Shown here piece after piece: positions 25,348 through 49,347 of a stretch of 64,000 bases of DNA. Positions within the stretch are counted from its first letter, which is position 1, and each line of letters begins with the position of its first letter. The translations under genes and the position numbers were made by a program. This DNA is from a virus, in the UHGV virus genome UHGV-0371537; one strand, written 5' to 3'. Below the pieces are notes generated by a model. The model was not told the origin of the DNA, ran no database searches, and saw only the letters and a list, made by a program, of their open reading frames with translations.

Positions 25348-25365
25348 CATATGGGGTATTTAGGC
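25348..25365 (-). promoter_or_regulatory. late-promoter-like CTAAATACCCCATATGG upstream of the acidic protein gene
   Basis: Minus-strand reading GCCTAAATACCCCATATGGCTAAC about 30 nt upstream of the ATG at 25324. Confidence 0.45.
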
Positions 25366-25824
25366 TTCCCGCACTGCCAGGCCGGGTTTGTACAGAACGA
25401 TCTCACGAACCATAGGCAGACCAACACGGTCAAGAATGATCGTGGAGTCGTAGCCCTGGGAGATTAGCTCGGCGGCGTTCTCATGGATCTTACCCGGTTC
25501 GATACCAAGTTCACGCATAGCGTCTTCCCAGGCCGAAACATTATTAGAGTCGAGTTCGAGGGGCTTCTTAACACTGACGTTAAACACCAGAACATGGGGT
25601 TCACCGCTCTGGCGATAGCGAACGGCGTTCTCAGCATAGCGCTGCGCCTCTTCTTCGTTGCCTGTCAGATAGAACCCAGGTCCCATCGTACCGCAGTCAG
25701 TCTGGCCGAAGCGCTCAAAGTCGAAGACATCGAATTCTACGTTGGAGCCGTGAAAGAGGCGCATGTTACCGAACTTGGGTTCAGCCTCAGACGCCTCTTT
25801 AAGATATTCAAGAAAGGTTTTCAT
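25360..25824 (-). CDS. capsid-targeted mini protein with PARP-like (H-Y-E type) ADP-ribosyltransferase motifs
   Basis: N-terminus MKTFLEYLKE resembles the T4 internal-protein capsid targeting sequence (MKTYQEFIAE); downstream LFHGS, GPGFYLT and VREIVLY spaced like PARP H-G-S, G-x-G-I-Y-F and N-E-Y-I-V-Y; late-promoter-like CTAAATA plus inverted repeat immediately upstream. Confidence 0.6.
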   Translation of the reverse strand: MKTFLEYLKEASEAEPKFGNMRLFHGSNVEFDVFDFERFGQTDCGTMGPGFYLTGNEEEAQRYAENAVRYRQSGEPHVLVFNVSVKKPLELDSNNVSAWEDAMRELGIEPGKIHENAAELISQGYDSTIILDRVGLPMVREIVLYKPGLAVREA

Positions 25825-25826
25825 AG

Positions 25827-25857
25827 ATACCCCACACTGGTTGTATGGGGTATTTAG
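25827..25857 (-). promoter_or_regulatory. late-promoter-like CTAAATA plus 8-bp inverted repeat (ATACCCCA / TGGGGTAT) abutting the start codon of the PARP-like gene
   Basis: Minus-strand reading CTAAATACCCCATACAACCAGTGTGGGGTATCT-ATG. Confidence 0.5.
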
Positions 25858-38710: not shown

Positions 38711-38751
38711 CTAAATACCCCTAGATGAAACGAACACATTTAGGGGTATTT
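38711..38751 (+). promoter_or_regulatory. late-promoter-like CTAAATA followed by an 11-bp inverted repeat (AAATACCCCTA / TAGGGGTATTT) upstream of tailspike 4
   Basis: Read directly in sequence; the same module recurs upstream of other late genes. Confidence 0.5.
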
Positions 38752-38754
38752 GAA

Positions 38755-41736
38755 ATGGCTAATAAACCAACACAGCCTGTTTTCCCTCTCGGTCTGGCGG
38801 CTGAAGAGCAGTCTACTTTGGCTGGTGTCCTCAACACGGGTACGATTGAGCATGGACCAGATGCTGTCCTGACTTTACCAGAGGGTAATGCCAGCGCAGG
38901 ACTCCCGTCTTCCGTTCGCTACAATGCCGACTCCGACGAATTTGAGGGCTTCTATGAAAATGGTGGATGGTTGCCGCTGGGTGGCGGTGGTATCCGCTGG
39001 GAAGTCCTTCCGCATGCCTCTACGGCAACGCTCACTGAAGGGCGAGGCTATCTCATTAATAATACCACAGGGGCATCTACAGTGGTTCTCCCTTCCCCTA
39101 CGCGTATTGGGGATTCCGTTACTATTTGTGATGCTTATGGGAAATTTGCCACTTACCCATTGACCGTGTCTCCTTCTGGAAATAATTTGTATGGCTCCAC
39201 TGAAGACATGGCTATAACAACTGATAACGTATCAGCAACGTTCACTTGGTCTGGACCTGAACAAGGTTGGATTATTACATCCGGCGTCGGTCTTGGCCAA
39301 GGTCGTGTCTACAGTCGTGAAATCTTTACAAAAATTTTGGCGTCTGAAACAAGTTCTGTCGCTCTCAATACTCCACCAACAATTGTGGACGTGTATGCTG
39401 ACGGAAAACGTCTTGCGGAATCCAAATATTCACTAGATGGGAATGTAATCACTTTCAGTCCTTCTTTGCCAGCCAACACAGAACTTCAGGTGATTGAATA
39501 TACTCCTATTCAATTGGGTAATGTCAGTGGTTCTGGTTCTTCTACGATTACCTGGGTCTATAATGGGGGTTCAGCGATTGGTGGTGAAACCGAAATCACG
39601 TTGGACGTCGTTGTTGATGATGTTCCGGCCATTGATATAAACGGAAGTCGCCAGTATAAAAATCTGGGATTCACATTCGATCCATTAACCAGTAAAATCA
39701 CTCTTGCGCAAGAACTGGAACCAGAGGATGAAGTTGTTGTAATTATCAATGGAACACCAAACATCTATAATCAAATTGATTATACTTTGCGGGAAGTTGC
39801 TCGAGCAACCAATGTTAAAGATACAGAGGTCGTTTATTTTAGTGTTGGTGCTGCGTTAAGTGGGTATAAAGTTATTTATGACAAGGAGACGCAAAGGGCT
39901 TATCCCTTGCCTGCTGATATTGTCCCTGGTACTACTGCTGTCAGTCTTAGTTCTTCCGCTATACTTGTGCATTCTGCTGGTAGTGTTGATCTGGGCGCAT
40001 TAGCTGTATCTCGTGAAGAATATGTTACATTGTCTGGGACATTTGATTCTGGTGCTGTCATCAATGTTAAAAATGAATTACTCACCCATACTGATGGAAA
40101 GTATCGTTGGGATGGTACACTTCCTAAAACCGTTGCTCCTGGCTCAACTCTTATGACAACAGGCGGCGTTGGTGTTGGCGCATGGATTAGTGTTGGTGAT
40201 GCTTCATTGAAGTCAGAATTGGCTAAACCTACAGGAGCAGGTTTTTCAGGTTTTGATAAGTCAATTGATTACGAAACTGGTACTGTTGGCAATGCGCTTA
40301 AGAAAATTATAAATGTCAACCCGGATATGTATCCATCATTACAGGATGCGATTGATGCTGCGGCAGCTTTAACAGGTTTAGAACATGCACCAAGTAGTGC
40401 TGCTAACCATCCTGACTGGCTACAACCTAACACTGTAAGCAAAGTTATCAGGCTGAATGGGAAGAAATATCCTATCAGTACGACACTACACATTCACGGA
40501 GATGTTAGCATTGATGCTGGTTTCGGTGGGGTGTACCTCACCGATGACTTCGTTGCAGACTCCTCTGGCTATGCTGTTAAATGCGATAAAGGGACGGGTA
40601 ATCAATACGCTGGGCATATCAGCAACTTATTAATTGATGCCCGTGCAAAAACTGTTAATGGGTTTAAGATATCCGATGGCTATGCTAACAAGTTAGAAGG
40701 CATTTACGTAGCCAACGTTGATGGTCATGGCATCCATATTGCTGGCGGTATGGGTGTGCACCTATTGAAGTTTTATGCTGTTGGTGTATTAAAACCAACT
40801 AATCCGCTCAGCACAGCCCACATTGTTGAAGGTAGCGATCATCAGGTTAGCATGGGTGAAGGTCGTTATTTCCGATTTGGTACCTGGGTTCGTGGTGGTG
40901 GTAATAACAGAATTGGTAAGGTGCACAACTGGGGCATGTATGACGATACAGTCACCGACCAGAACTCAAGGATGAAATGCTGCTTTGTTGTACAGAACTC
41001 AATAAACAATTCCTTCAATCAATGTTTTGCAGATTCTCCATCAAAATGGGACTACACGAAAGCTAATTTAGATCCTGTAGATGGTTATATTAACGGCGGG
41101 ATTGGTTTTTTTATTGATGGTGGAGCCACCGGTAATACGTTCTCTCAATGCCAGACGTTTGTGAATATGAATGCGTTTAATGACGCAGGGTTATCTGCAT
41201 ATGCGGCATCACTAATGCCATTCGCCGTTGGCAGTATCAATTGCTCATTCATTGAGTGTGAAAACTCAAACTCACCAGCATGGGTGGCAAGACTGATAAC
41301 TCATATTTACTCTGTGGATCAGGCATTTACTAACATACTCGCAGCTAAGAATTTTGTTGGTATAGAGTATGATATGGTTTGCAATGGTACAATTTTCAGG
41401 AAAAATGTTGGAGTTCCTGTATTGGTAAGAAATTCAAAGTTCGAGACGCCAACAGCAAGTTATGCGCCTAACTTTTCAGACGCATCTTACATCGCAGCTA
41501 CAGTTACAGGAGATGTAACAATAACACCAGCAGTATTAACAAATACACTAATTGGTTATGTTGAGGTTCTTTTGGCTGTCTATTCAACAACATCTAAAAC
41601 AATAACATTTGGTGCAAATGTTATATTAGCAAGTAGTACCCCATCTTTGACAGCAGCTGGAACACAAGTTTTTAGGTTGTCAACAACTGATGGAGGAACG
41701 ACTTGGTTCTGTAAGTTCGAGAGTGCTTACCCGTAA
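38755..41736 (+). CDS. tailspike / tail fibre protein, paralogue 4 (extended N-terminal anchor region plus shared module plus distinct C-terminal domain)
   Basis: Contains the about 150-aa module shared by all four paralogues (VVYFSVGAALSGYKVIYDKETQRAYPLP...GKYRWDGTLPKTV...GAWISVG); Gly/Asn-rich C-terminal region; start set to the ATG after the inverted repeat (ORF track begins at 38725). Confidence 0.75.
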   Translation: MANKPTQPVFPLGLAAEEQSTLAGVLNTGTIEHGPDAVLTLPEGNASAGLPSSVRYNADSDEFEGFYENGGWLPLGGGGIRWEVLPHASTATLTEGRGYLINNTTGASTVVLPSPTRIGDSVTICDAYGKFATYPLTVSPSGNNLYGSTEDMAITTDNVSATFTWSGPEQGWIITSGVGLGQGRVYSREIFTKILASETSSVALNTPPTIVDVYADGKRLAESKYSLDGNVITFSPSLPANTELQVIEYTPIQLGNVSGSGSSTITWVYNGGSAIGGETEITLDVVVDDVPAIDINGSRQYKNLGFTFDPLTSKITLAQELEPEDEVVVIINGTPNIYNQIDYTLREVARATNVKDTEVVYFSVGAALSGYKVIYDKETQRAYPLPADIVPGTTAVSLSSSAILVHSAGSVDLGALAVSREEYVTLSGTFDSGAVINVKNELLTHTDGKYRWDGTLPKTVAPGSTLMTTGGVGVGAWISVGDASLKSELAKPTGAGFSGFDKSIDYETGTVGNALKKIINVNPDMYPSLQDAIDAAAALTGLEHAPSSAANHPDWLQPNTVSKVIRLNGKKYPISTTLHIHGDVSIDAGFGGVYLTDDFVADSSGYAVKCDKGTGNQYAGHISNLLIDARAKTVNGFKISDGYANKLEGIYVANVDGHGIHIAGGMGVHLLKFYAVGVLKPTNPLSTAHIVEGSDHQVSMGEGRYFRFGTWVRGGGNNRIGKVHNWGMYDDTVTDQNSRMKCCFVVQNSINNSFNQCFADSPSKWDYTKANLDPVDGYINGGIGFFIDGGATGNTFSQCQTFVNMNAFNDAGLSAYAASLMPFAVGSINCSFIECENSNSPAWVARLITHIYSVDQAFTNILAAKNFVGIEYDMVCNGTIFRKNVGVPVLVRNSKFETPTASYAPNFSDASYIAATVTGDVTITPAVLTNTLIGYVEVLLAVYSTTSKTITFGANVILASSTPSLTAAGTQVFRLSTTDGGTTWFCKFESAYP

Positions 41737-41798
41737 AACTAACCCCCTCTTCGGCAGGGTTCTTGTTATACCTTTGTTCATAAATTTATTAGTTCAGC

Positions 41799-41836
41799 CT
41801 AAATACCCCATATTGGTCATCCTTTATGGGGTATTA
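41799..41836 (+). promoter_or_regulatory. late-promoter-like CTAAATA plus inverted repeat (TACCCCATA / TATGGGGTA) upstream of tailspike 3
   Basis: Near-identical to the module at 44337-44373. Confidence 0.5.
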
Positions 41837-41838
41837 TC

Positions 41839-43788
41839 ATGATTTCTCAATTCAATCAACCACGCGGCTCCACTTCCATAGAAGTTAACAAACAATCTAT
41901 CGCTCGAAATTTCGGTGTCAAAGAAGACGAAGTCGTTTATTTCACTGCTGGTATTGATCTCAGTGGATTTAAAGTAATTTATAATGAGTCTACCCAACGG
42001 GCTTATTCTCTTCCTTCAGGTATTGTTTCAGGAACGACTGCTGTTAGTCTTAGTGCTAACGCTGTTCTTATGCACTCAGCTGGTTCTATAGACCTCGGAG
42101 AATTAGCCGTATCTCGTGAAGAATACGTTACATTGCCTGGGTCATTCACCTCGGGTGCTACGCTTAATGTTAAAAATGAATTGCTTACCCATACAACAGG
42201 CAAGTATCGCTGGGACGGGGAATTTCCTAAAACCGTTTCTGCAGGTTCTACCCCTGAATCTGCTGGTGGTGTTGGTCCTAGTGCGTGGGTTAGTGTTGGT
42301 GTTGCTTCTTTAAGAGCAGACCTGGAAAAACCAACAGGGGCAGGATTGATTGGATTTGGCTGTTCTCCATATATAAATAGAAATATTGGAGATGTTCTCC
42401 AGGATATACCAACGAACAAATATTTTGGTGCAAAGTGTGATGGCGTAACTGATGATACTGTAGCTAACCAAACTGCACTTGATTGGTCTGCTGACAATAA
42501 AAGAGATGTTATTTTTGTTGGAAAAAGCTGCATAACAAGCAGACTTGTACACAATTCAGGCTCCAGGGTAACACATCTTGGAGAGATCAAACCTCGTGAT
42601 TTTTCTGATGATGTTGTTATTGAGGTAAAGGACGATGCGTGGCGTGATCCTTACAATGATGGAATAACAGCAATCGATACTGGCGATAGAGTTCATATTG
42701 ATGGTCTATGTATTGCCCCTGACTCTGTAATAGATGCTGTTGGTATTCTTGGCACTGATGGAGTGGATCCGATCATATCAAGATTAAGAACATTCAACAT
42801 GAGAAGGGGAGGAATTAAGATTGTTAAGGGGTATGGATGGAACATATCAAACATTTCAATCATTGCACCTTTTGATCAAAATAACTCTCATGATTATGCA
42901 GGAATTAGGCATGAAACGTCAGATTCATTTTATTCTAGCGTTATAGTTTCAGGATATACTACTGGACTTGATATGCCTGGAAATGCTAATCAAGTATCAA
43001 AGGCCCACTGCTGGGGAATGTCATTACCAGATAGAACCACTCGTAATATGTTATTCGGCCTTAAAATGAGCGGTAGTGGTAATAACGTAGTGCAATTCTA
43101 TTCTGATTCTCCTAAAAAAATTGATAAAACACAAGCTGCAAGCATTACAAATGGTGGGATTGGCTATGTAATTTCTGGTTTTAACAACACATTTTTATCA
43201 CCTAGGAACCTATCTCATCAGGATTGTGGCTTGAAATATGGTAAGGTTTTTCTGATATCTGGTTCTGAGAATACCTTTATTAGCCCCTTAATAGGTGATT
43301 ATGACTACATTGAAGATGATGGATTTTTCACATTTACAGATTCGGCAAGCCCGCTAAACAACTATGTTTATGGTGGCAACATGCAATCTACATATTTGTA
43401 CCCAATTGCAAGTGGTAGCTATAAACCAACTGTAAACATCCCATGCACATACAGCTCTCAAATATATAACCATAATATCATTCAGAAAAATGTTATGGGA
43501 AGAGTTGTTATTACATGCAATATTACAAGTAATTCATCCGACGATCCATTCTATATACAACTGCCACCTTATCTATCAGCTGTATCTGGGATGGCAAGTG
43601 GATCAATAATTAACAACCTTACATCGTCAGTAAGAGCTGATAGCAACCTTTTTGCAGTCGAACCTTATGTTTCAAATGGTAAAATCTACTTCCGTAGATT
43701 ATTTAGATCTGGAGCTGCTGATGATATAAAGCAAAATATGCTTAACACAGGTAATGCTTTCTTTGATATATCAATAAATGCAAGATAA
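41839..43788 (+). CDS. tailspike protein, paralogue 3 (shared module at N-terminus plus distinct C-terminal domain)
   Basis: N-terminal region VVYFTAGIDLSGFKVIYNESTQRAYSLP...GKYRWDGEFPKTV homologous to the other three paralogues. Confidence 0.75.
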   Translation: MISQFNQPRGSTSIEVNKQSIARNFGVKEDEVVYFTAGIDLSGFKVIYNESTQRAYSLPSGIVSGTTAVSLSANAVLMHSAGSIDLGELAVSREEYVTLPGSFTSGATLNVKNELLTHTTGKYRWDGEFPKTVSAGSTPESAGGVGPSAWVSVGVASLRADLEKPTGAGLIGFGCSPYINRNIGDVLQDIPTNKYFGAKCDGVTDDTVANQTALDWSADNKRDVIFVGKSCITSRLVHNSGSRVTHLGEIKPRDFSDDVVIEVKDDAWRDPYNDGITAIDTGDRVHIDGLCIAPDSVIDAVGILGTDGVDPIISRLRTFNMRRGGIKIVKGYGWNISNISIIAPFDQNNSHDYAGIRHETSDSFYSSVIVSGYTTGLDMPGNANQVSKAHCWGMSLPDRTTRNMLFGLKMSGSGNNVVQFYSDSPKKIDKTQAASITNGGIGYVISGFNNTFLSPRNLSHQDCGLKYGKVFLISGSENTFISPLIGDYDYIEDDGFFTFTDSASPLNNYVYGGNMQSTYLYPIASGSYKPTVNIPCTYSSQIYNHNIIQKNVMGRVVITCNITSNSSDDPFYIQLPPYLSAVSGMASGSIINNLTSSVRADSNLFAVEPYVSNGKIYFRRLFRSGAADDIKQNMLNTGNAFFDISINAR

Positions 43789-43792
43789 ATAA

Positions 43793-43821
43793 GTAGAGCA
43801 GCAACATGATTGCTGCTCTAC
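43793..43821 (+). terminator. rho-independent terminator after tailspike 3
   Basis: GTAGAGCAGCAACATGATTGCTGCTCTAC hairpin followed by TTTCTC. Confidence 0.6.
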
Positions 43822-43849
43822 TTTCTCATACAACCTAATTGAAGTTAGT

Positions 43850-43977
43850 GGGTATATTACAGGAGGTAAAATATTCTTTAGAAGGTTATTCAGAAGCGGC
43901 TCTCCTGTTGATGTTCAGATAACAGATCTGATAACAGGTTATGCATCAATAGACTTGAGCTTTACTTGCCAGCTATA
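43850..43977 (+). pseudogene. remnant of a tailspike 3' end (second copy of the C-terminal about 40 codons)
   Basis: Translates to ...GGKIFFRRLFRSGSPVDVQITDLITGYASIDLSFTCQL*, homologous to the C-terminus of the upstream tailspike (...NGKIYFRRLFRSGAADDIKQNMLNTGNAFFDISINAR*). Confidence 0.5.
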
Positions 43978-43982
43978 AACAA

Positions 43983-44002
43983 AAACCCCGCTTCGGCGGG
44001 GT
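43983..44002 (+). terminator. terminator hairpin AACCCCGCTTCGGCGGGGTT (copy 1)
   Basis: Perfect GC-rich hairpin with TTCG loop; a second near-identical copy lies about 295 nt downstream. Confidence 0.55.
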
Positions 44003-44278
44003 TAGTTTTATCATCAGAATGGTATTGAATCACTGTTGGTAATAGTAGGCTCATTGCCTCTTGGTTGGTTTGGATGCTGTTCAGTATAACCGGTTCCAAC
44101 CAAACCAATGAGGCAGTGGGTAAGGGGGGTTTTTGTTGTACCCCAAACAATTCATTAGGTAGACTGTTTTAGTCAATTACGACTTAACTAACCTGAGAAA
44201 ATCCCTATGGGAAATGAACCAGATAACGTAACTCTAGCCAGACTCGAAGAGAGACTGAGAAACATTTTCGAAAACCAA

Positions 44279-44298
44279 AACCCCGCTTCGGCGGGGTT
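44279..44298 (+). terminator. terminator hairpin AACCCCGCTTCGGCGGGGTT (copy 2)
   Basis: Same hairpin as 43983-44002, followed by the conserved late-promoter cassette. Confidence 0.55.
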
Positions 44299-44336
44299 CT
44301 TATTATATCCATGTTCATAAATTTTATTAGTTCAGG

Positions 44337-44373
44337 CTAAATACCCCATATTGGCAAATCCTCTATGGGGTAT
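44337..44373 (+). promoter_or_regulatory. late-promoter-like CTAAATA plus inverted repeat upstream of tailspike 2
   Basis: CTAAATACCCCATATTGG-N-TATGGGGTAT, as upstream of tailspike 3. Confidence 0.5.
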
Positions 44374-44379
44374 CTTCAA

Positions 44380-47022
44380 ATGACCAGAAACGTCGAGAGC
44401 ATCTTTGGAGCGGTCGTAACAGCTCCGCACCAGATTCCATACACTTACACAGCAACGGGCGGAGAGAAGTTTATCTCCCTCCCGTTCTATCCTGTTACGG
44501 GCTTCATCACCATCAATGGGGGTGTTCAGGTTCCGACAGACAATTTCGAAATCGATGGTAACACTGTCAACCTGGGTCGAGCACTTGAGACCGGGGATGT
44601 TGTGTATTGCTTGTTTGACAAGATCCTGTCTCCAGAAGATTATGAAAACGGGATCCGCATCTACAAGTTCCAGACCGTTGGTAACGAGACCTCATTCACC
44701 CCAGACTTCACGACATATGGTGTGCAGTCTCTGTATGTTGACGGGAAGTTCCAGGTGCCGGACGTCAACTACACGTATTCCCCAACCAATGGTGTCGTTA
44801 ATTTCCTGACTGGATCTCCGGCGGCTGGTGTTTGGGTTGTTGCAGAAATGTCTGTGAAGCAGCCAAACATTTCCCCTCTCTTCGATAGAACAATTCAAGA
44901 AGTGGCCAGATCTGCGAAAGTTAAGGACTCGGATGTTGTTATCGCTGTATCCGGTGCTTCACTTTCTTCCAAGAAAGTCATCTTTGATAAAACTGCGCAA
45001 AGATGGTACTCGCTGTCAACCGGGTTGACTTCCACGGTGGTCAGTTTGGTTGATGGAATCCTCACTCACTCTTCAGGTACTGTTGATTTAGGTGCGCTGG
45101 CGGTTACTCGTGGCGAATATTTCACCATGTCTGAAACCTTCACAACCGGGTTCACAATCAGAGTGAAGAATGAGATCGTCAGCGACGGAACATATCTTTA
45201 TCGCTGGGCTGGTAGTTTGCCAAAAGTTGTTTCCGCTGGAACAACCGTGGACAACACCGGGGGTGTGAGTGCGAGTGCCTGGGTGAGATCAGATCAAAGA
45301 ACCATCAGCACCGTCAAGAGACAACTACAGCAATCCTACACGATGGCAGAATTAGTGGCCAAAACTGACATACAGTTGGGCGACTCTTTCCTTTGCTCGG
45401 ACAGGGCATATGGTGTTTATGACGTCGTTTCTTCGGTGGCTTACCCACCAAATGGTTATTCGAACGTAGTCAGCACAGTGAACTCCGGTTTGGTGTTCAG
45501 ACTGCGTGTGGTTGCTAACACAATCGATTTGGAGCAAATTGGTGGTAAGCCTCTCATCTGGGGAACCCAAGAAATCGACTGTAAACAGGCGTTGCAGGAA
45601 GCTTTCTATCTCTTGCTCGACTCCGAGAGCGCGACGGTTGATCTGAAGTCCAACAAATGGTTGCTGTCATCTTATGTGTTCAACGACGTCAAACAGCGCC
45701 GGAAAATTGTTGGTAACAACGCCATTATCTATGGGATGCCAGATGACGGTGTGACCAACTATGATTACCTGGTGAGTACTGCATGGAACTACCAAGACAT
45801 CGAAGGTGTTACGTTCGACTGTCAGTGGAACCCTCGTTATGCATGCTGTCTCCGTATCACTCATGGGTACGGACGATACGATGGCCTGACGATTCGTAAA
45901 GCTCGTTGCGCCATTCAGGTTGGTAAGAGCGAGGAAAGCCGGGTCAGCCTCAGCGAATTCATGTTCACACAACTTCGCACTGAAGAATGTGCGAAAGTCG
46001 CAATTGTTCACGGGCTTTATTCTGTGCTTAACATCAGCGATTCCATCGTGGCTTGCGGCGAGGGCGCTTTCTGGAAAACATATGACTGTACCGGGTTCAC
46101 CATCTATGGTGGTCGCGTATTCCTGATGAAATGTGGGGGCAACAGCAACGTCATCAACTTAGACAACCCTTATGTCTATTGCGCAAATACCACGGTTGCA
46201 GGCGCTCCATATATCGGTTCGTTCAACGCAGTGCAGTGCGACTTTGAATTCAGGACTCGCTTCTGCATCGTGAACGATACGACGACAGTTTATCAAGATT
46301 ACAACCAAGCAGTTGTTCTTGATTCTTGCCGAATTGGTGTATTCGCCAGCCTGGACTCTCGTGCGTTGAATTTCTTTGAAAGTAACGTCGGATACCGTGG
46401 GCAGCTCCGGATTAAGAACACAGATCTTCTGTTCGACACCACCGTGTCTCTGCCGCCGATCAAAGCTGGTGGGCATACCATCGTGGATATTGATTATGAT
46501 TCGATCTACATTCCTAACTTCAGGGGTCCAAAGATGGTCAGCTTCGCTGGTTATCCTCCGGTTCTTCCAGTCGGGATTGTGTTCCAGAACAACGTTGGGG
46601 CTGACACTCCTCTTTCTGGTAACCAGTTTGTGAACTTTTCTAACCCGATCATTGGCTTGGATTCTGATTCCTCTCTGCTTAGCAGCAACTGGAACTCGTC
46701 CACCAAGAAATTCGAATTGCCTCCTGGTGGCTTGAGTGATGTTACCGTCACTGTACGTCTGACATTGAAAGATCCTGCCACCGCCCCGGTGACAGCGTTG
46801 GTGGAATACAACAACGGCACAGCGATTGGACTTGCATTCGGGACAATCCCGGTTGGATCCAAAGATCTTTTGATCACTGGCAGGATCCGGGATCTTCGAG
46901 ATACAGCCCAGATATATTGTATCACGAGTTCTACAGCGGCGTACACCCTCAGCAATACCGGGGCATATGACTCTACTATGACAATTGAGGCCAGCATTCG
47001 GCCTCCGAAGACTAAAAGTTAA
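44380..47022 (+). CDS. tailspike protein, paralogue 2 (N-terminal extension plus shared module plus distinct C-terminal domain)
   Basis: Shared module VVIAVSGASLSSKKVIFDKTAQRWYSLS...GTYLYRWAGSLPKVV; start set to the ATG after the inverted repeat (ORF track begins at 44365). Confidence 0.75.
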   Translation: MTRNVESIFGAVVTAPHQIPYTYTATGGEKFISLPFYPVTGFITINGGVQVPTDNFEIDGNTVNLGRALETGDVVYCLFDKILSPEDYENGIRIYKFQTVGNETSFTPDFTTYGVQSLYVDGKFQVPDVNYTYSPTNGVVNFLTGSPAAGVWVVAEMSVKQPNISPLFDRTIQEVARSAKVKDSDVVIAVSGASLSSKKVIFDKTAQRWYSLSTGLTSTVVSLVDGILTHSSGTVDLGALAVTRGEYFTMSETFTTGFTIRVKNEIVSDGTYLYRWAGSLPKVVSAGTTVDNTGGVSASAWVRSDQRTISTVKRQLQQSYTMAELVAKTDIQLGDSFLCSDRAYGVYDVVSSVAYPPNGYSNVVSTVNSGLVFRLRVVANTIDLEQIGGKPLIWGTQEIDCKQALQEAFYLLLDSESATVDLKSNKWLLSSYVFNDVKQRRKIVGNNAIIYGMPDDGVTNYDYLVSTAWNYQDIEGVTFDCQWNPRYACCLRITHGYGRYDGLTIRKARCAIQVGKSEESRVSLSEFMFTQLRTEECAKVAIVHGLYSVLNISDSIVACGEGAFWKTYDCTGFTIYGGRVFLMKCGGNSNVINLDNPYVYCANTTVAGAPYIGSFNAVQCDFEFRTRFCIVNDTTTVYQDYNQAVVLDSCRIGVFASLDSRALNFFESNVGYRGQLRIKNTDLLFDTTVSLPPIKAGGHTIVDIDYDSIYIPNFRGPKMVSFAGYPPVLPVGIVFQNNVGADTPLSGNQFVNFSNPIIGLDSDSSLLSSNWNSSTKKFELPPGGLSDVTVTVRLTLKDPATAPVTALVEYNNGTAIGLAFGTIPVGSKDLLITGRIRDLRDTAQIYCITSSTAAYTLSNTGAYDSTMTIEASIRPPKTKS

Positions 47023-47079: not shown

Positions 47080-49347
47080 ATGAATCCGCAATTTTCACAG
47101 CCGAAAGGCGCTGTCTCCAAAGAGACAAACAAAGACTCTATTGCACGCAAATTCGGTTGCAAGAAGTCTGAGGTTCTGTATGCCAAGACGGGCGCTGCCC
47201 TGACCGGTTACAAGGTGATCTATGATAAGGTCACTCAGCGCTCCTATGCTCTGCCTTCTAACCTGCCCGCTGGCGCTACCATCACCAGCTTGGCAGATGG
47301 TGTTCTTGTACATTCTGGCGGCACTGTAGACCTCGGAGCACTCGCTGTACTTCGGGAAGAGTTCGTAACTCTGGTTGAGAATTTCACTTCCGGGTTTACG
47401 ATTCGGGTCAAGAATGAAGTCGTGAGTGATGGAACGTACCTGTATCGTTGGGGTGGTTCGTTACCAAAGACCGTCAATGCTTCATCAACTGTTGCTGGGA
47501 CGGGTGGGATTTCTCCTAGTGCTTGGGTGGGCGTGGGAAACACTTCATTTTTGGGTGTTGACGGCGCAACATTAGTGGGGTATCAAAACCCTCGTTCAAC
47601 TGTGAACGAAACAATAAAATCCGCTCTTGATAAAATAAACATGAAAGTTATCTTTGCGGCGGATTGGGGTGTTAAAACTGATTCGTCTGATAACCAGGAT
47701 TCTTTGTGGTCCTTGGGTCAATATCTCTCTGCGTCTACGGAACCGCTGTACGTTGTATTTCCTAGGGGGATAAGTTTGGTCGGGTCACAGCAGTTTGCCG
47801 GGGCGTCTTCGCAAGGATATTCTTATCGACCCAACTATTTACGCCGCTCATGGGCGGACTTGTCCGCCGCTGGTTGGTTTTCCATCAGTGAGACTAATCA
47901 AAAGATCGTCTTAGACATGACCGGGTGGACTTTAAAACTGAACTCTGGATTCAAGCTCGGTTCATTTGATCCGATAACCGGAAATCCCGCACCCGATTCT
48001 CCATCAGAAGATTTAAATTTTATGGCGTCTTCTGGGTATATGATTAAGCTGTATCTCGCACCAAATGTGGAAATTTTGAATGGAACCACTGATGGTAACT
48101 TAACAGGTGCTATTTGGGGTGGTACTTATGGTCCAGCAGGGTATCAAGTCCCAGCATACAATATGTGGATTAATCAATCTGAAGGCGTTTACATATCTCG
48201 GCATACTTTTAAAAACTCTGCCGTTGACGGATTGTATCTTCAAGCCACAGGGAATAGAAATTTCCTAGACATTATCCCCAAAACCATTATCGACAACTGC
48301 ATCATAACAGACTGCGGTCGTAATTGTTATTCTCTCACTGGGGCTGCAAATGTTGAGATGAGAAACATCATTATAACCCGATCGGGTTCAAAGGCCAATG
48401 GCATTTCTACGCACGCAAGTGATCCGCAAGCAGGGGTGGACATTGAAGCGGAAGGTGGCAACCCATATAACATAACCTTCATTAATCCTAAGATCGTTGA
48501 TTGTGCTAAGAACGCTCTTATGACCGTGTCGGTGCCAGGAACTGTCAACGATGTGACTGTAGATGGAGGGGTTATTCACAGTTATTCAGAATTGGGCGCT
48601 GTGTTTAATTCAGGAAACTCTCGTAACATTAAATTCAAAAACGCCACTATAATTGGTGGGGTAATTGATTCTAAAAGCCCTGCAGAAATGGGTTTGGAAT
48701 GTTATTCATTCGAAAACTGCACGTTTGCAAACAGATATGGTAACACCTATGCAATGAATTATCTACTTTCTTTCCGAGTTAGTAAATTTGTTGGTAATAC
48801 CATTGATTTTAATATCCCCACCACTGGGGTAACAGCTCCGACCATCGTTATCAATGATCAAGATGGGGTTGCTAACGGTTACTCGTTAGAACGCTGTAAA
48901 CAGAATCGTATTATCCTGACCGGAAATGCTGCTAATATCACCTATGCCAACGGATTGGGGGGATTTAACTTTTTCCGCAATGCTGAAGTGTTTGTTGAAG
49001 CAGGGGGCATGACGGGAACAACGAAGATGTTGGTAGACACATGTTCTGCAGCGCCTGGAGGCATGCTTACAAATTCTGCTAACTTCAACTTTGGTGTCAC
49101 CATGACTAAAGATACAAGTCGGAATTTATGGTATGCTGCTAAACAATCTTATGTGGGTAGCGTACTGACAGCGGCTCCCACGGCGGCAGGCTCCCAGAAT
49201 GGAAGCCTGGATTTAGGGAGCGTGAATGGAAGATTTCGGACTGGATATTTCGATTCTGGGGTGATTGTCAGGGACGGAGTAACTGGTACGCATTATAGAG
49301 TGCGAGTTACCAGCGGTTCTCTGAATATTGTGGCGGATGAAAATTAA
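47080..49347 (+). CDS. tailspike protein, paralogue 1 (shared module at N-terminus plus beta-helix-like C-terminal domain)
   Basis: Shared module VLYAKTGAALTGYKVIYDKVTQRSYALP...GTYLYRWGGSLPKTV; Asn/Gly/Thr-rich C-terminal region. Confidence 0.75.
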   Translation: MNPQFSQPKGAVSKETNKDSIARKFGCKKSEVLYAKTGAALTGYKVIYDKVTQRSYALPSNLPAGATITSLADGVLVHSGGTVDLGALAVLREEFVTLVENFTSGFTIRVKNEVVSDGTYLYRWGGSLPKTVNASSTVAGTGGISPSAWVGVGNTSFLGVDGATLVGYQNPRSTVNETIKSALDKINMKVIFAADWGVKTDSSDNQDSLWSLGQYLSASTEPLYVVFPRGISLVGSQQFAGASSQGYSYRPNYLRRSWADLSAAGWFSISETNQKIVLDMTGWTLKLNSGFKLGSFDPITGNPAPDSPSEDLNFMASSGYMIKLYLAPNVEILNGTTDGNLTGAIWGGTYGPAGYQVPAYNMWINQSEGVYISRHTFKNSAVDGLYLQATGNRNFLDIIPKTIIDNCIITDCGRNCYSLTGAANVEMRNIIITRSGSKANGISTHASDPQAGVDIEAEGGNPYNITFINPKIVDCAKNALMTVSVPGTVNDVTVDGGVIHSYSELGAVFNSGNSRNIKFKNATIIGGVIDSKSPAEMGLECYSFENCTFANRYGNTYAMNYLLSFRVSKFVGNTIDFNIPTTGVTAPTIVINDQDGVANGYSLERCKQNRIILTGNAANITYANGLGGFNFFRNAEVFVEAGGMTGTTKMLVDTCSAAPGGMLTNSANFNFGVTMTKDTSRNLWYAAKQSYVGSVLTAAPTAAGSQNGSLDLGSVNGRFRTGYFDSGVIVRDGVTGTHYRVRVTSGSLNIVADEN

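Follow-up and report, generated by a model that had tools for sequence, protein, structure and literature searches.

The tailspike cluster of virus genome UHGV-0371537 raises the question of what fills an intergenic gap that has outgrown its usual size, and by what route the extra DNA arrived. The stretch analysed (64,000 nucleotides, nt; hereafter the window) holds four tailspike genes, with open reading frames (ORFs) at 38725-41736, 41839-43788, 44380-47022, and 47080-49347, in the order 4, 3, 2, 1 that is also found in annotated relatives. Judged by the neighbouring baseplate region, which is ~88% identical to that of the Agtreviruses SKML-39, SW16-7, and Ag3, the phage is Agtrevirus-like (Ackermannviridae). 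Its tailspike 3-2 gap measures 591 nt (43789-44379) versus ~100 nt in minimal-gap relatives. Because the normal gap of these relatives is a terminator/promoter cassette alone, and most phage records match the last 100 nt only, the gap is inflated by ~490 nt of DNA beyond the cassette. The matching phage records number 129, nearly all of them confined to the last ~100 nt (query 485-591), and no phage record covers at least 80% of either the gap or the tailspike-3 region.

The gap probably consists of the stacked 3′ flanks of successive receptor-binding modules, laid on an ordinary ~100-nt terminator/promoter cassette, with a route leading from prophage to podovirus to myovirus. Four layers follow one another, namely (i) a prophage flank (43789-43836), (ii) the remnant of a tailspike gene (43832-43978), (iii) a podovirus flank (43979-44279), and (iv) the resident cassette (44279-44379), and the three joints, termed A, B, and C, carry 3-7 nt of microhomology (Table 1). 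An earlier note on this DNA had named a tailspike fragment, two hairpins, and a repeated cassette, and had read the gap as the footprint of tailspike module exchange. All of these elements are found, at slightly corrected coordinates, and the reading holds now that layers and joints are identified by sequence; the hairpin at 43791-43823, the acyltransferase gene end at 43826-43836, and the gp63 fragment at 44207-44278 had been overlooked. What the locus preserves, in unusual detail, is a real and well-resolved scar of recombination, which is in itself an ordinary event.

Table 1. Positions of the elements in and around the tailspike 3-2 gap
Feature	Position	Strand	Remarks
Resident cassette, copy 1	41735-41838	+	between tailspikes 4 and 3; alignment with copy 2, motif
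Tailspike 3 gene	41839-43788	+	649 amino acids, chimera; stop 43786-43788
Block shared with contig L018	42341-44280	+	1.94 kb, ~98% identity; receptor-binding domain and all imported flank layers
Perfect 14-bp hairpin, 5-nt loop	43791-43823	.	-21.5 kcal/mol, z = -7.0
Acyltransferase 3′ end, 11 nt	43826-43836	-	TCATACAACCT on + strand; prophage L009 comparison
Junction C	43831-43836	.	6-nt microhomology CAACCT; overlap of prophage flank and older allele
Non-coding 3′ remnant, AV101-TSP3-type tailspike	43832-43978	+	48 codons and stop
Junction B	43978-43984	.	7-nt microhomology AACAAAA; AV101-type stop region / Gamaleyavirus terminator region
Gamaleyavirus-type terminator hairpin, first copy	43984-44003	+	AACCCCGCTTCGGCGGGGTT; terminator scan, relatives
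Long imperfect hairpin, variable flank part	44049-44121	+	-39.7 kcal/mol, z = -2.4 (modest)
Conserved pre-gp63 region and gp63′	44123-44279	+	94% nt identity to G7C
Junction A	44277-44283	.	gp63 codon 24 / 5′ base of resident terminator; 3-6 nt microhomology
Resident cassette, copy 2	44279-44379	+	terminator 44279-44298; CTAAATACCCC 44337-44347; inverted repeat 44341-44373

Layers and joints of the gap

Tailspike 3, the gene in front of the gap, is itself composite. Up to ~42315 its N-terminal anchor is of Agtrevirus type, with 82-89% nt identity to many Ackermannviridae TSP3 genes, and PHROG tail-spike families match this N-terminus; the TSP3 similarity ends at ~42315-42359. From ~42316 onwards follows a receptor-binding module of E. 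coli prophage type, which opens with a ...PTGAGLIGFG linker. This receptor-binding domain (RBD) is 90% identical in amino acids (aa) and 88% in nt to P22-like prophage tailspikes, and 93% identical in nt to a 704-aa prophage tailspike (L019) with a different N-terminus. The best phage-genome matches of the RBD, AV101 and EcoIv28_Lewi, reach ~54% aa. Since the module has no close counterpart among 50,697 phage records (best 54.6% aa) and prophages with the present RBD occur in only 4 of 5,426 complete E. coli genomes, NZ_CM129040 and NZ_AP021890 among them, the O-antigen recognised by this phage is probably one that characterised Ackermannviridae do not yet cover. Across 42319-43830 the RBD reads as a patchwork, in which some 100-nt stretches are 100% identical to L019 and others 96-99% to the P22-like prophage L009. 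The segment at 42316-42350 (ADLEKPTGAGLIGFG) was considered as a 5′ relic of an AV101-type allele and rejected, the same linker being joined to the present RBD type in the 704-aa prophage tailspike.

The first layer continues the prophage DNA beyond the gene. Donor-type prophages have a tailspike gene, a hairpin, and then a convergent acyltransferase gene; the hairpin at 43791-43823 corresponds to the bidirectional terminator between the two, its sequence is the same in L009, and it is predicted to terminate tailspike 3 now. Just behind it, 11 nt remain of an O-antigen acyltransferase gene, made up of its stop codon, the two V codons before that, and 2 nt of a K codon, and the L009 acyltransferase coding sequence ends ...KVV* exactly at the equivalent position. 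Identity with L009 (ungapped comparison shown from 43800) extends through 43836 and ends there, while identity with the AV101-like allele (L011, L002) begins at 43831, and the overlap defines junction C. This joint sits in unrelated, non-homologous DNA outside the resident cassette.

The second layer reads NLIEVSGYITGGKIFFRRLFRSGSPVDVQITDLITGYASIDLSFTCQL* in the frame starting at 43790, lacks an in-frame start codon, and is not among the listed ORFs. It had been described as a fragment of about 40 codons, about 60 nt after the tailspike-3 stop, and as a diverged second copy of that gene's C-terminus. The fragment exists, with 48 codons and a stop that begin 43 nt after the tailspike stop codon; its proposed parentage does not hold. 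The remnant is identical at 140/147 nt (95%) to the tailspike of the E. coli TST3 prophage and at 136/147 nt (92.5%) to AV101 TSP3, versus 47% aa identity (over 47 aa) to the C-terminus of resident tailspike 3, which it resembles because AV101 TSP3 and tailspike 3 are homologous throughout (62% aa). On proper alignment, the check that had been proposed, the resemblance to the resident protein is significant (BLASTP E = 3e-12), with a score of 107 that exceeds all of 1000 shuffles (28.8 ± 4.4, maximum 51). Full-length counterparts of the remnant are found in AV101 TSP3, EcoIv28_Lewi, the TST3 prophage, and an N4-like contig (L022), and all end ...IDLSFTCQL*. Given that full-length alleles exist elsewhere and that the joints can be defined, the fragment is the leftover of a displaced allele, as had been suggested.

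The third layer carries a podovirus signature. Positions 43978-44279 are 85% identical to phiG17 over 302 nt, and the last 157 nt (44123-44279) are 91-97% identical to G7C and its relatives. In G7C and phiG17 this DNA stands directly after tailspike gene gp63.1 and runs into gp63. As gp63 is a core gene of N4-like phages that is truncated here, the flank at 43979-44279 originated in a podovirus. At junction B the window equals L011/L002 through TAAACAAAA and phiG17 from AACAAAAACCCC. The terminator hairpin that begins at this joint is found downstream of tailspike genes in G7C, phiG17, PhAPEC7, LPST10, and Lewi and, compared by description and not by motif logos, fits the published 20-nt 'motif three' (PMC10408124). 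Behind it, the long imperfect hairpin occupies the place of the relatives' second terminator-like hairpin.

The gp63 fragment (gp63′, 44207-44278) comprises 24 codons, MGNEPDNVTLARLEERLRNIFENQ, that are 100% aa identical to gp63 of G7C and phiG17; it covers phrog_5211 positions 1-27 of 112 (E = 0.0023), and its frame then runs into the terminator. A full-length gp63 has ~110 aa and lies upstream of a holin and a muramidase; no lysis genes follow gp63′ in the window, and by its sequence it is a gene fragment and not an N4-like gp63 member. At junction A, where the microhomology is AAA or AAACCC depending on the donor allele, the same gp63 fragment with the same end is found in the window and in the E. 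coli Agtreviruses A221 and PC3. The joint is identical in A221 and PC3 although the alleles and flanks upstream are unrelated, so the gp63 stub is older than the present allele. On sequence grounds, all three stubs (tailspike remnant, gp63, and acyltransferase) have become dead DNA.

The fourth layer is the resident cassette, immediately followed by the start of tailspike 2 at 44380. Its other copy, between tailspikes 4 and 3, contains a degenerate terminator (41741-41761), the late-type promoter motif CTAAATACCCC (41799-41809), and an inverted repeat ATACCCCATA...TATGGGGTAT directly before the ATG; 44269-44379 and 41732-41838 agree in 91/111 alignment columns (82%). A 102-nt gap identical to copy 1 is present in YX22 and vB_CECAV_050, and gaps of 97-103 nt made of the cassette only stand at tailspike 4-3 and 3-2 in Agtrevirus vB_CECAV_050 and Kuttervirus SFP10. 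The minimal content of such a gap is a terminator hairpin, a spacer of ~35 nt, CTAAATACCCC, and an inverted repeat ending just before the ATG. The copy-2 terminator hairpin, which is G+C-rich and leads into a T-rich tract, also occurs in the cassettes of SFP10, PC3, and AV101. The cassette is hence the real repeated unit that the earlier note took it for, conserved across Agtrevirus and Kuttervirus. The two hairpins that it had called near-identical (43984-44003 and 44279-44298) are in fact identical at 20/20 positions and both scored terminator-like, with folding energies of -16.1 and -15.3 kcal/mol, respectively; the first, however, is not a duplicate of the resident cassette but a native G7C-like terminator.

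The proposal that such cassettes act as recombination linkers, an idea already in print, is borne out only partly. Of three joints in all, A and B are found at the hairpins' 5′ bases and C in unrelated DNA, and only junction A abuts the resident terminator. Neither of the younger joints (B and C) falls within the resident cassette; B abuts the imported terminator at 43984.

A block shared with a podovirus and parallel cases

The strongest link to a podovirus comes from L018, a 70-kb Gamaleyavirus (G7C-like, N4-like podovirus) metagenome contig from SRR29134275, whose 650-aa tailspike, found by protein search, is 89% identical to tailspike 3 over its full length. L018, in which gp63 is intact (110 aa), matches G7C at 94% over 5.1 kb (gp63 to portal gene). 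The tailspike anchors of the window and L018 are 58-72% identical; identity rises to ~98-100% at ~42340, and drops to ~35% after 44280, past gp63 codon 24. By segment, the agreement is 1422/1449 in the coding part, 143/148 in the remnant, and 121/122 and 153/154 in the flank. The shared block is, like the identities of the layers and the joints themselves, a direct observation. Junctions B and C are present in L018 at 97-100% identity, and because L018 is an independent data set, the composite predates the last transfer. A displacement of the allele in this very genome is improbable, given that the remnant and joints B and C are ~98% identical in L018. The remnant was most likely created in a podovirus and imported together with the receptor-binding module.

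The window is L018-like at all sites informative against A221 and PC3, up to ~44203. Within the flank, a variable stretch of 146 nt (43978-44123) has Gamaleyavirus homologues in phiG17 (85%) and PhAPEC7 (77%) and is missing from A221 and PC3, which favours the direction from podovirus to myovirus.

Three smaller features of the comparison with L018 may be recorded. Within the RBD, identity falls to 87-93% at 42961-43140. In the remnant, four of five differences cluster in 16 nt (43939-43954), changing GYAS in the window (TST3 prophage type; AV101 has GHAS) to GNAT in L018 (Lewi and L022 type), which suggests that a non-coding remnant was gene-converted by a full-length allele. The loop of the prophage hairpin (43805-43809) reads CATGA in the window and in L009 and is inverted, TCATG, in L018 (7970-7974), a flip-flop expected from recombination within a perfect stem.

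Inflated gaps with differing contents are found in the E. coli Agtreviruses AV101, A221, PC3, and YX22 and in Ag3, so that related genomes do vary greatly at these junctions, as a gap comparison among relatives had been meant to reveal. AV101 TSP3 and its gap are 93.8% identical over 2146 nt to another N4-like contig, L022, and the match takes in a prophage 3′ flank of ~230 nt, ~200 nt of which belong to the acyltransferase gene, as well as the beginning of a divergent gp63; the cut in gp63 falls at another codon in AV101 than in the window. AV101 TSP1 has G7C-like DNA on both sides, at 87% on the left and at 93.5% on the right, where a frameshifted gp63 start is included. Because AV101 TSP3 and its gap closely match an N4-like contig too, the route from prophage through N4-like podovirus to Agtrevirus, as read from these alignments, was followed on at least two independent occasions, and gp63 stubs were picked up at three separate positions. 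PC3 TSP3 (849 aa) was also considered as a direct copy of G7C gp63.1 (851 aa) and was rejected, as the similarity is limited to the 144-aa anchor.

Order and direction of the transfers

The order and direction of the transfers are deduced from which piece interrupts which, and so is the use of these homologies in crossing over. In the history considered most probable, a G7C-like Gamaleyavirus would have carried an AV101-type module in its gp63.1 slot, joined to its own terminator at AACAAAA (junction B). A related E. coli prophage module would then have overwritten most of the AV101-type module; with it would have come the bidirectional terminator of the prophage and the final 11 nt of its convergent O-antigen acyltransferase gene, and a 6-nt microhomology joint (junction C) would have stranded the last 48 codons of the old allele. 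In a final step, the whole composite would have entered the tailspike-3 slot of an Agtrevirus-like myovirus, with the left crossover at the anchor/RBD boundary (~42340, PTGAGLIGFG linker) and the right end inside a gp63 fragment that had already been fused to the resident terminator by an earlier capture (junction A). The segment 44123-44279 is a candidate 3′ homology arm for this step. In the resulting arrangement, the hairpin at 43791-43823 is predicted to end tailspike 3, with two CCCCGCTTCGGCGGGG hairpins as backup, and the CTAAATACCCC cassette would restart for tailspike 2.

Several points weigh against this history. The last transfer, as a homologous double crossover, is symmetrical in direction, so that construction in an Agtrevirus and export to a podovirus is also conceivable. 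At 88-93% identity, even the best prophage matches fall short of being the true donors, and the RBD combines stretches of two prophage allele types; on both accounts the 5′ joint of the prophage-derived module cannot be placed. The right crossover within the gp63 fragment rests on 76 marker-free nt (beyond ~44203). Among Agtrevirus-like genomes, this stack has so far been seen in the window only. Exact-match scans of IMG/VR across junctions B and C returned 0 matches each, as did a scan with the imported hairpin, and an 18-nt pattern across junction A returned two matches, both unrelated to the tailspike region. Finally, all named terminators and promoters are predictions.

The most serious competitor, rated as distinctly less probable, takes the same layers and joints to have been built within the Agtrevirus lineage and the finished block to have been exported later to an L018-like podovirus. 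An AV101-type allele would have stood in the tailspike-3 slot before the older gp63 fragment and would have been overwritten there by the prophage module. The slot can hold such an allele, as AV101 proves, A221 and PC3 show the present allele to be younger than junction A and the gp63 fragment, and a double crossover works both ways. Yet the DNA at 43978-44123 is lineage-variable Gamaleyavirus DNA that A221 and PC3 do not have, and in the AV101 case the prophage flank is already in an N4-like genome beside an intact-looking gp63. These two observations favour assembly in the podovirus. Retention of the extra DNA for a function, as a 37-codon gp63′ ORF, a small RNA from the long hairpin, or a spare C-terminal cassette, is quite improbable. 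It is true that gp63′ still has its ATG and the region upstream of it, that the window, A221, and PC3 all contain it intact, and that the hairpin at 44049-44121 is stable; but gp63′ lacks the C-terminal hydrophobic stretch (GKWVWAGAGAIIGVLAAA) of the full 110-aa protein and reads into a terminator, the copy after AV101 TSP1 is frameshifted, and the TSP3-TSP2 gap of AV101 contains a copy that breaks off at another codon. Moreover, the remnant has no start codon and lies between two terminators, the hairpin reaches no Rfam family at threshold and a z-score of only -2.4, and relatives with a minimal gap live without any of this DNA.

Two simpler explanations fare worse still. Mis-joined variants can yield duplicated gene ends, and two tailspike-3 alleles of a mixed population could have been collapsed into a chimeric contig; the joints, however, share only 6-7 nt, far below assembler k-mer sizes, and junctions B and C recur in the independent L018 data, so that an assembly artefact is excluded for practical purposes. 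Taken literally, a diverged second copy means that the 3′ end of tailspike 3 was duplicated locally, in tandem, and then diverged, which would account for two homologous C-termini (47% aa, E = 3e-12) that lie 190 nt apart. This explanation is already refuted, and has the least credit of all the explanations: the remnant is 92-95% identical in nt to full-length alleles elsewhere, and prophage-derived DNA with the stop codon of a foreign gene intervenes between the gene and the remnant.

Earlier reports, wider meaning, and neighbouring elements

The exchange of receptor-binding modules in Ackermannviridae and their likeness to prophage proteins are established (PMC10791037, PMC11721090). The AV101 study drew from BLASTp the conclusion that Agtrevirus RBDs resemble those of prophages and of distant virulent phages, placed recombination near the end of the N-terminal domain, and showed that AV101 TSP3 recognises the O153 antigen (PMC10791037); the remnant in the window belongs to this same AV101 TSP3 type. 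By term search, neither PMC10791037 nor PMC11721090 mentions intergenic DNA or remnants, the review PMC11721090 mentions neither terminator nor promoter, and G7C appears in PMC10791037 in the reference list only. AV101 itself carries gp63 and acyltransferase stubs, which a term search did not find described in either paper.

Gamaleya- and Kutterviruses share a 44-nt anchor-end motif and a 20-nt terminator motif, which a published proposal regards as hot spots of recombination across genera (Virol J 2023;20:174, PMC10408124). In accordance with that report, the anchor-end motif is present in all four tailspikes of the window (family D2, 42265-42299) and the terminator occurs twice. Whereas those motifs were proposed from conservation, the actual joints can be read in the window, and they differ from the proposal in that (i) a 3′ joint is found twice at the 5′ base of a terminator and once in unrelated DNA, (ii) the right boundary of the latest exchange is the gp63 fragment and not a terminator, and (iii) the shared element exceeds 20 nt and is a two-hairpin unit of ~100 nt. 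G7C-like coliphages swap the C-termini of gp63.1 and gp66, with conserved N-termini, unrelated C-termini, and prophage-like sources, and their exchanges are bounded by a terminator-like stem-loop (bioRxiv 10.1101/542787). Those are exchanges of podoviruses among themselves; here, a myovirus from another family is tied to the same slot at 98% identity, and a retained acyltransferase stop codon settles the prophage origin. Stacked non-coding stubs, a podovirus intermediate, and a gp63 stub as the boundary of a near-identical inter-family block were not found in these papers by term search. Module swapping and the conserved terminator as a hot spot are thus already published, and what is new is a nucleotide-level record of the route.

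In SP6, K1-5, and K1E, tailspike cassettes are exchanged between conserved intergenic linkers, and in P22 and Det7 the same RBD fold stands behind different anchor domains in podoviruses and myoviruses. These cases are known from protein similarity or cassette synteny and not from stacked non-coding remnants. The likeness of the Det7 and P22 tailspikes is mentioned in PMC11721090.

Receptor-binding modules set the host range of phages used for E. coli and Salmonella biocontrol and typing, and the locus shows base by base how a module may reach a large lytic myovirus, carrying bits of its former neighbours. Gap content could trace the source of a module where protein similarity is ambiguous, and the natural crossover positions (on the left, the PTGAGLIGFG linker region; on the right, the terminator base or the gp63 stub) could be useful for the engineering of chimeric tailspikes. 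It is a tentative and rather doubtful generalisation that the DNA behind tailspike genes is an ordered travel log of donors and that the gp63 stub in E. coli Agtreviruses is a dedicated 3′ homology arm. If the former were true, each transfer would drag along anything from a few bases to a few hundred of the gene downstream in the donor, and the acyltransferase, old-allele, and gp63 stubs would record passage from a temperate prophage through an N4-like podovirus to an Ackermannviridae myovirus. If the latter were true, the tailspike-3 slot would be a docking site for ready-made Gamaleyavirus modules, and inter-family jumps in host range would be frequent and predictable.

Other gaps and genomes offer related observations. 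The terminator and the second hairpin together form a unit of ~100 nt (window 43978-44081; LPST10, L017, 1501-1613; Lewi, L003, 5937-6046), with 70-76% identity in both relatives. In the Salmonella siphovirus LPST10 (Skatevirus) it comes shortly after the tail-fibre gene; in Lewi, a phage of 48 kb, an ORF stands between it and the tailspike gene upstream. Aligned in this way, the linker behind tailspike genes is longer and more widespread than the published 20-nt motif. A recurrent foreign piece, TATATAGA(G/A)TTTA(C/G)TGT, mostly continued by TTGCATTACCCTAATTGATA..., follows several tailspike genes of AV101, A221, PC3, and YX22 (L002, 3899-4201; L005, 8397-8847; L006, 7907-8224 and 10451-10901; L007, 7002-7353 and 11989-12289); it looks like the 3′ end of an opposite-strand gene from a further donor type. 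In the 200-nt tailspike 3-2 gap of Shigella phage Ag3 (L014, record 125498-125697), an open frame ends ...QLANIVATLINDISLGKFVIR* just before the cassette and looks like another stranded C-terminal remnant.

The promoter motif CTAAATACCCC has been reported as an Ackermannviridae regulatory motif (PMC7283392). It has five exact copies in the window versus 0.46 expected, three of them just upstream of tailspikes 4, 3, and 2, and the family motif CTAAATAcCcc is found 30-45 nt upstream of the tailspike start codon, with a putative promoter role. Behind four of the five copies stands an inverted repeat (ATACCCC...GGGGTAT) with its end 2-6 nt short of the start codon (38713-38751, 41801-41835, 44341-44373, and, on the minus strand, 25822-25855), with loops that differ between genes, and the genes concerned have no obvious Shine-Dalgarno sequence. 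The fifth copy (25353-25363, minus strand) is without the repeat and has GAGGAA before its ATG. The inverted repeat may act as a control element, whether promoter-proximal or translational. In the 1003-aa tailspike-4 ORF, the first ATG (38725) falls inside the loop of the inverted repeat, 4 nt past the promoter motif, and by analogy with tailspikes 3 and 2 the true start may be the ATG at 38756 (GGGGTATTTGAAATG). The terminator after tailspike 4 (41741-41761, AACCCCCTCTTCGGCAGGGTT) folds at -6.5 kcal/mol, no better than shuffles; because it is degenerate, tailspikes 4 and 3 may be co-transcribed, in contrast to tailspikes 3 and 2.

An Rfam 15 search of 41000-45000 at E ≤ 1 gave best scores of 17-27 bits against thresholds of 45-100, so that no family was reached, a sigma-70 promoter scan yielded fewer matches than in shuffles and none inside the gap, and a minus-strand ORF of 62 aa (43962-44150) had no PHROG match. 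Within tailspike 4, an internal segment of 300 nt (39813-40112) is 74% identical to the tailspike 3 anchor region at 41916-42215, and G7C gp63.1 matches both. Such an internal repeat agrees with what is known of the branched tailspike complex, in which anchor-like domains are repeated.

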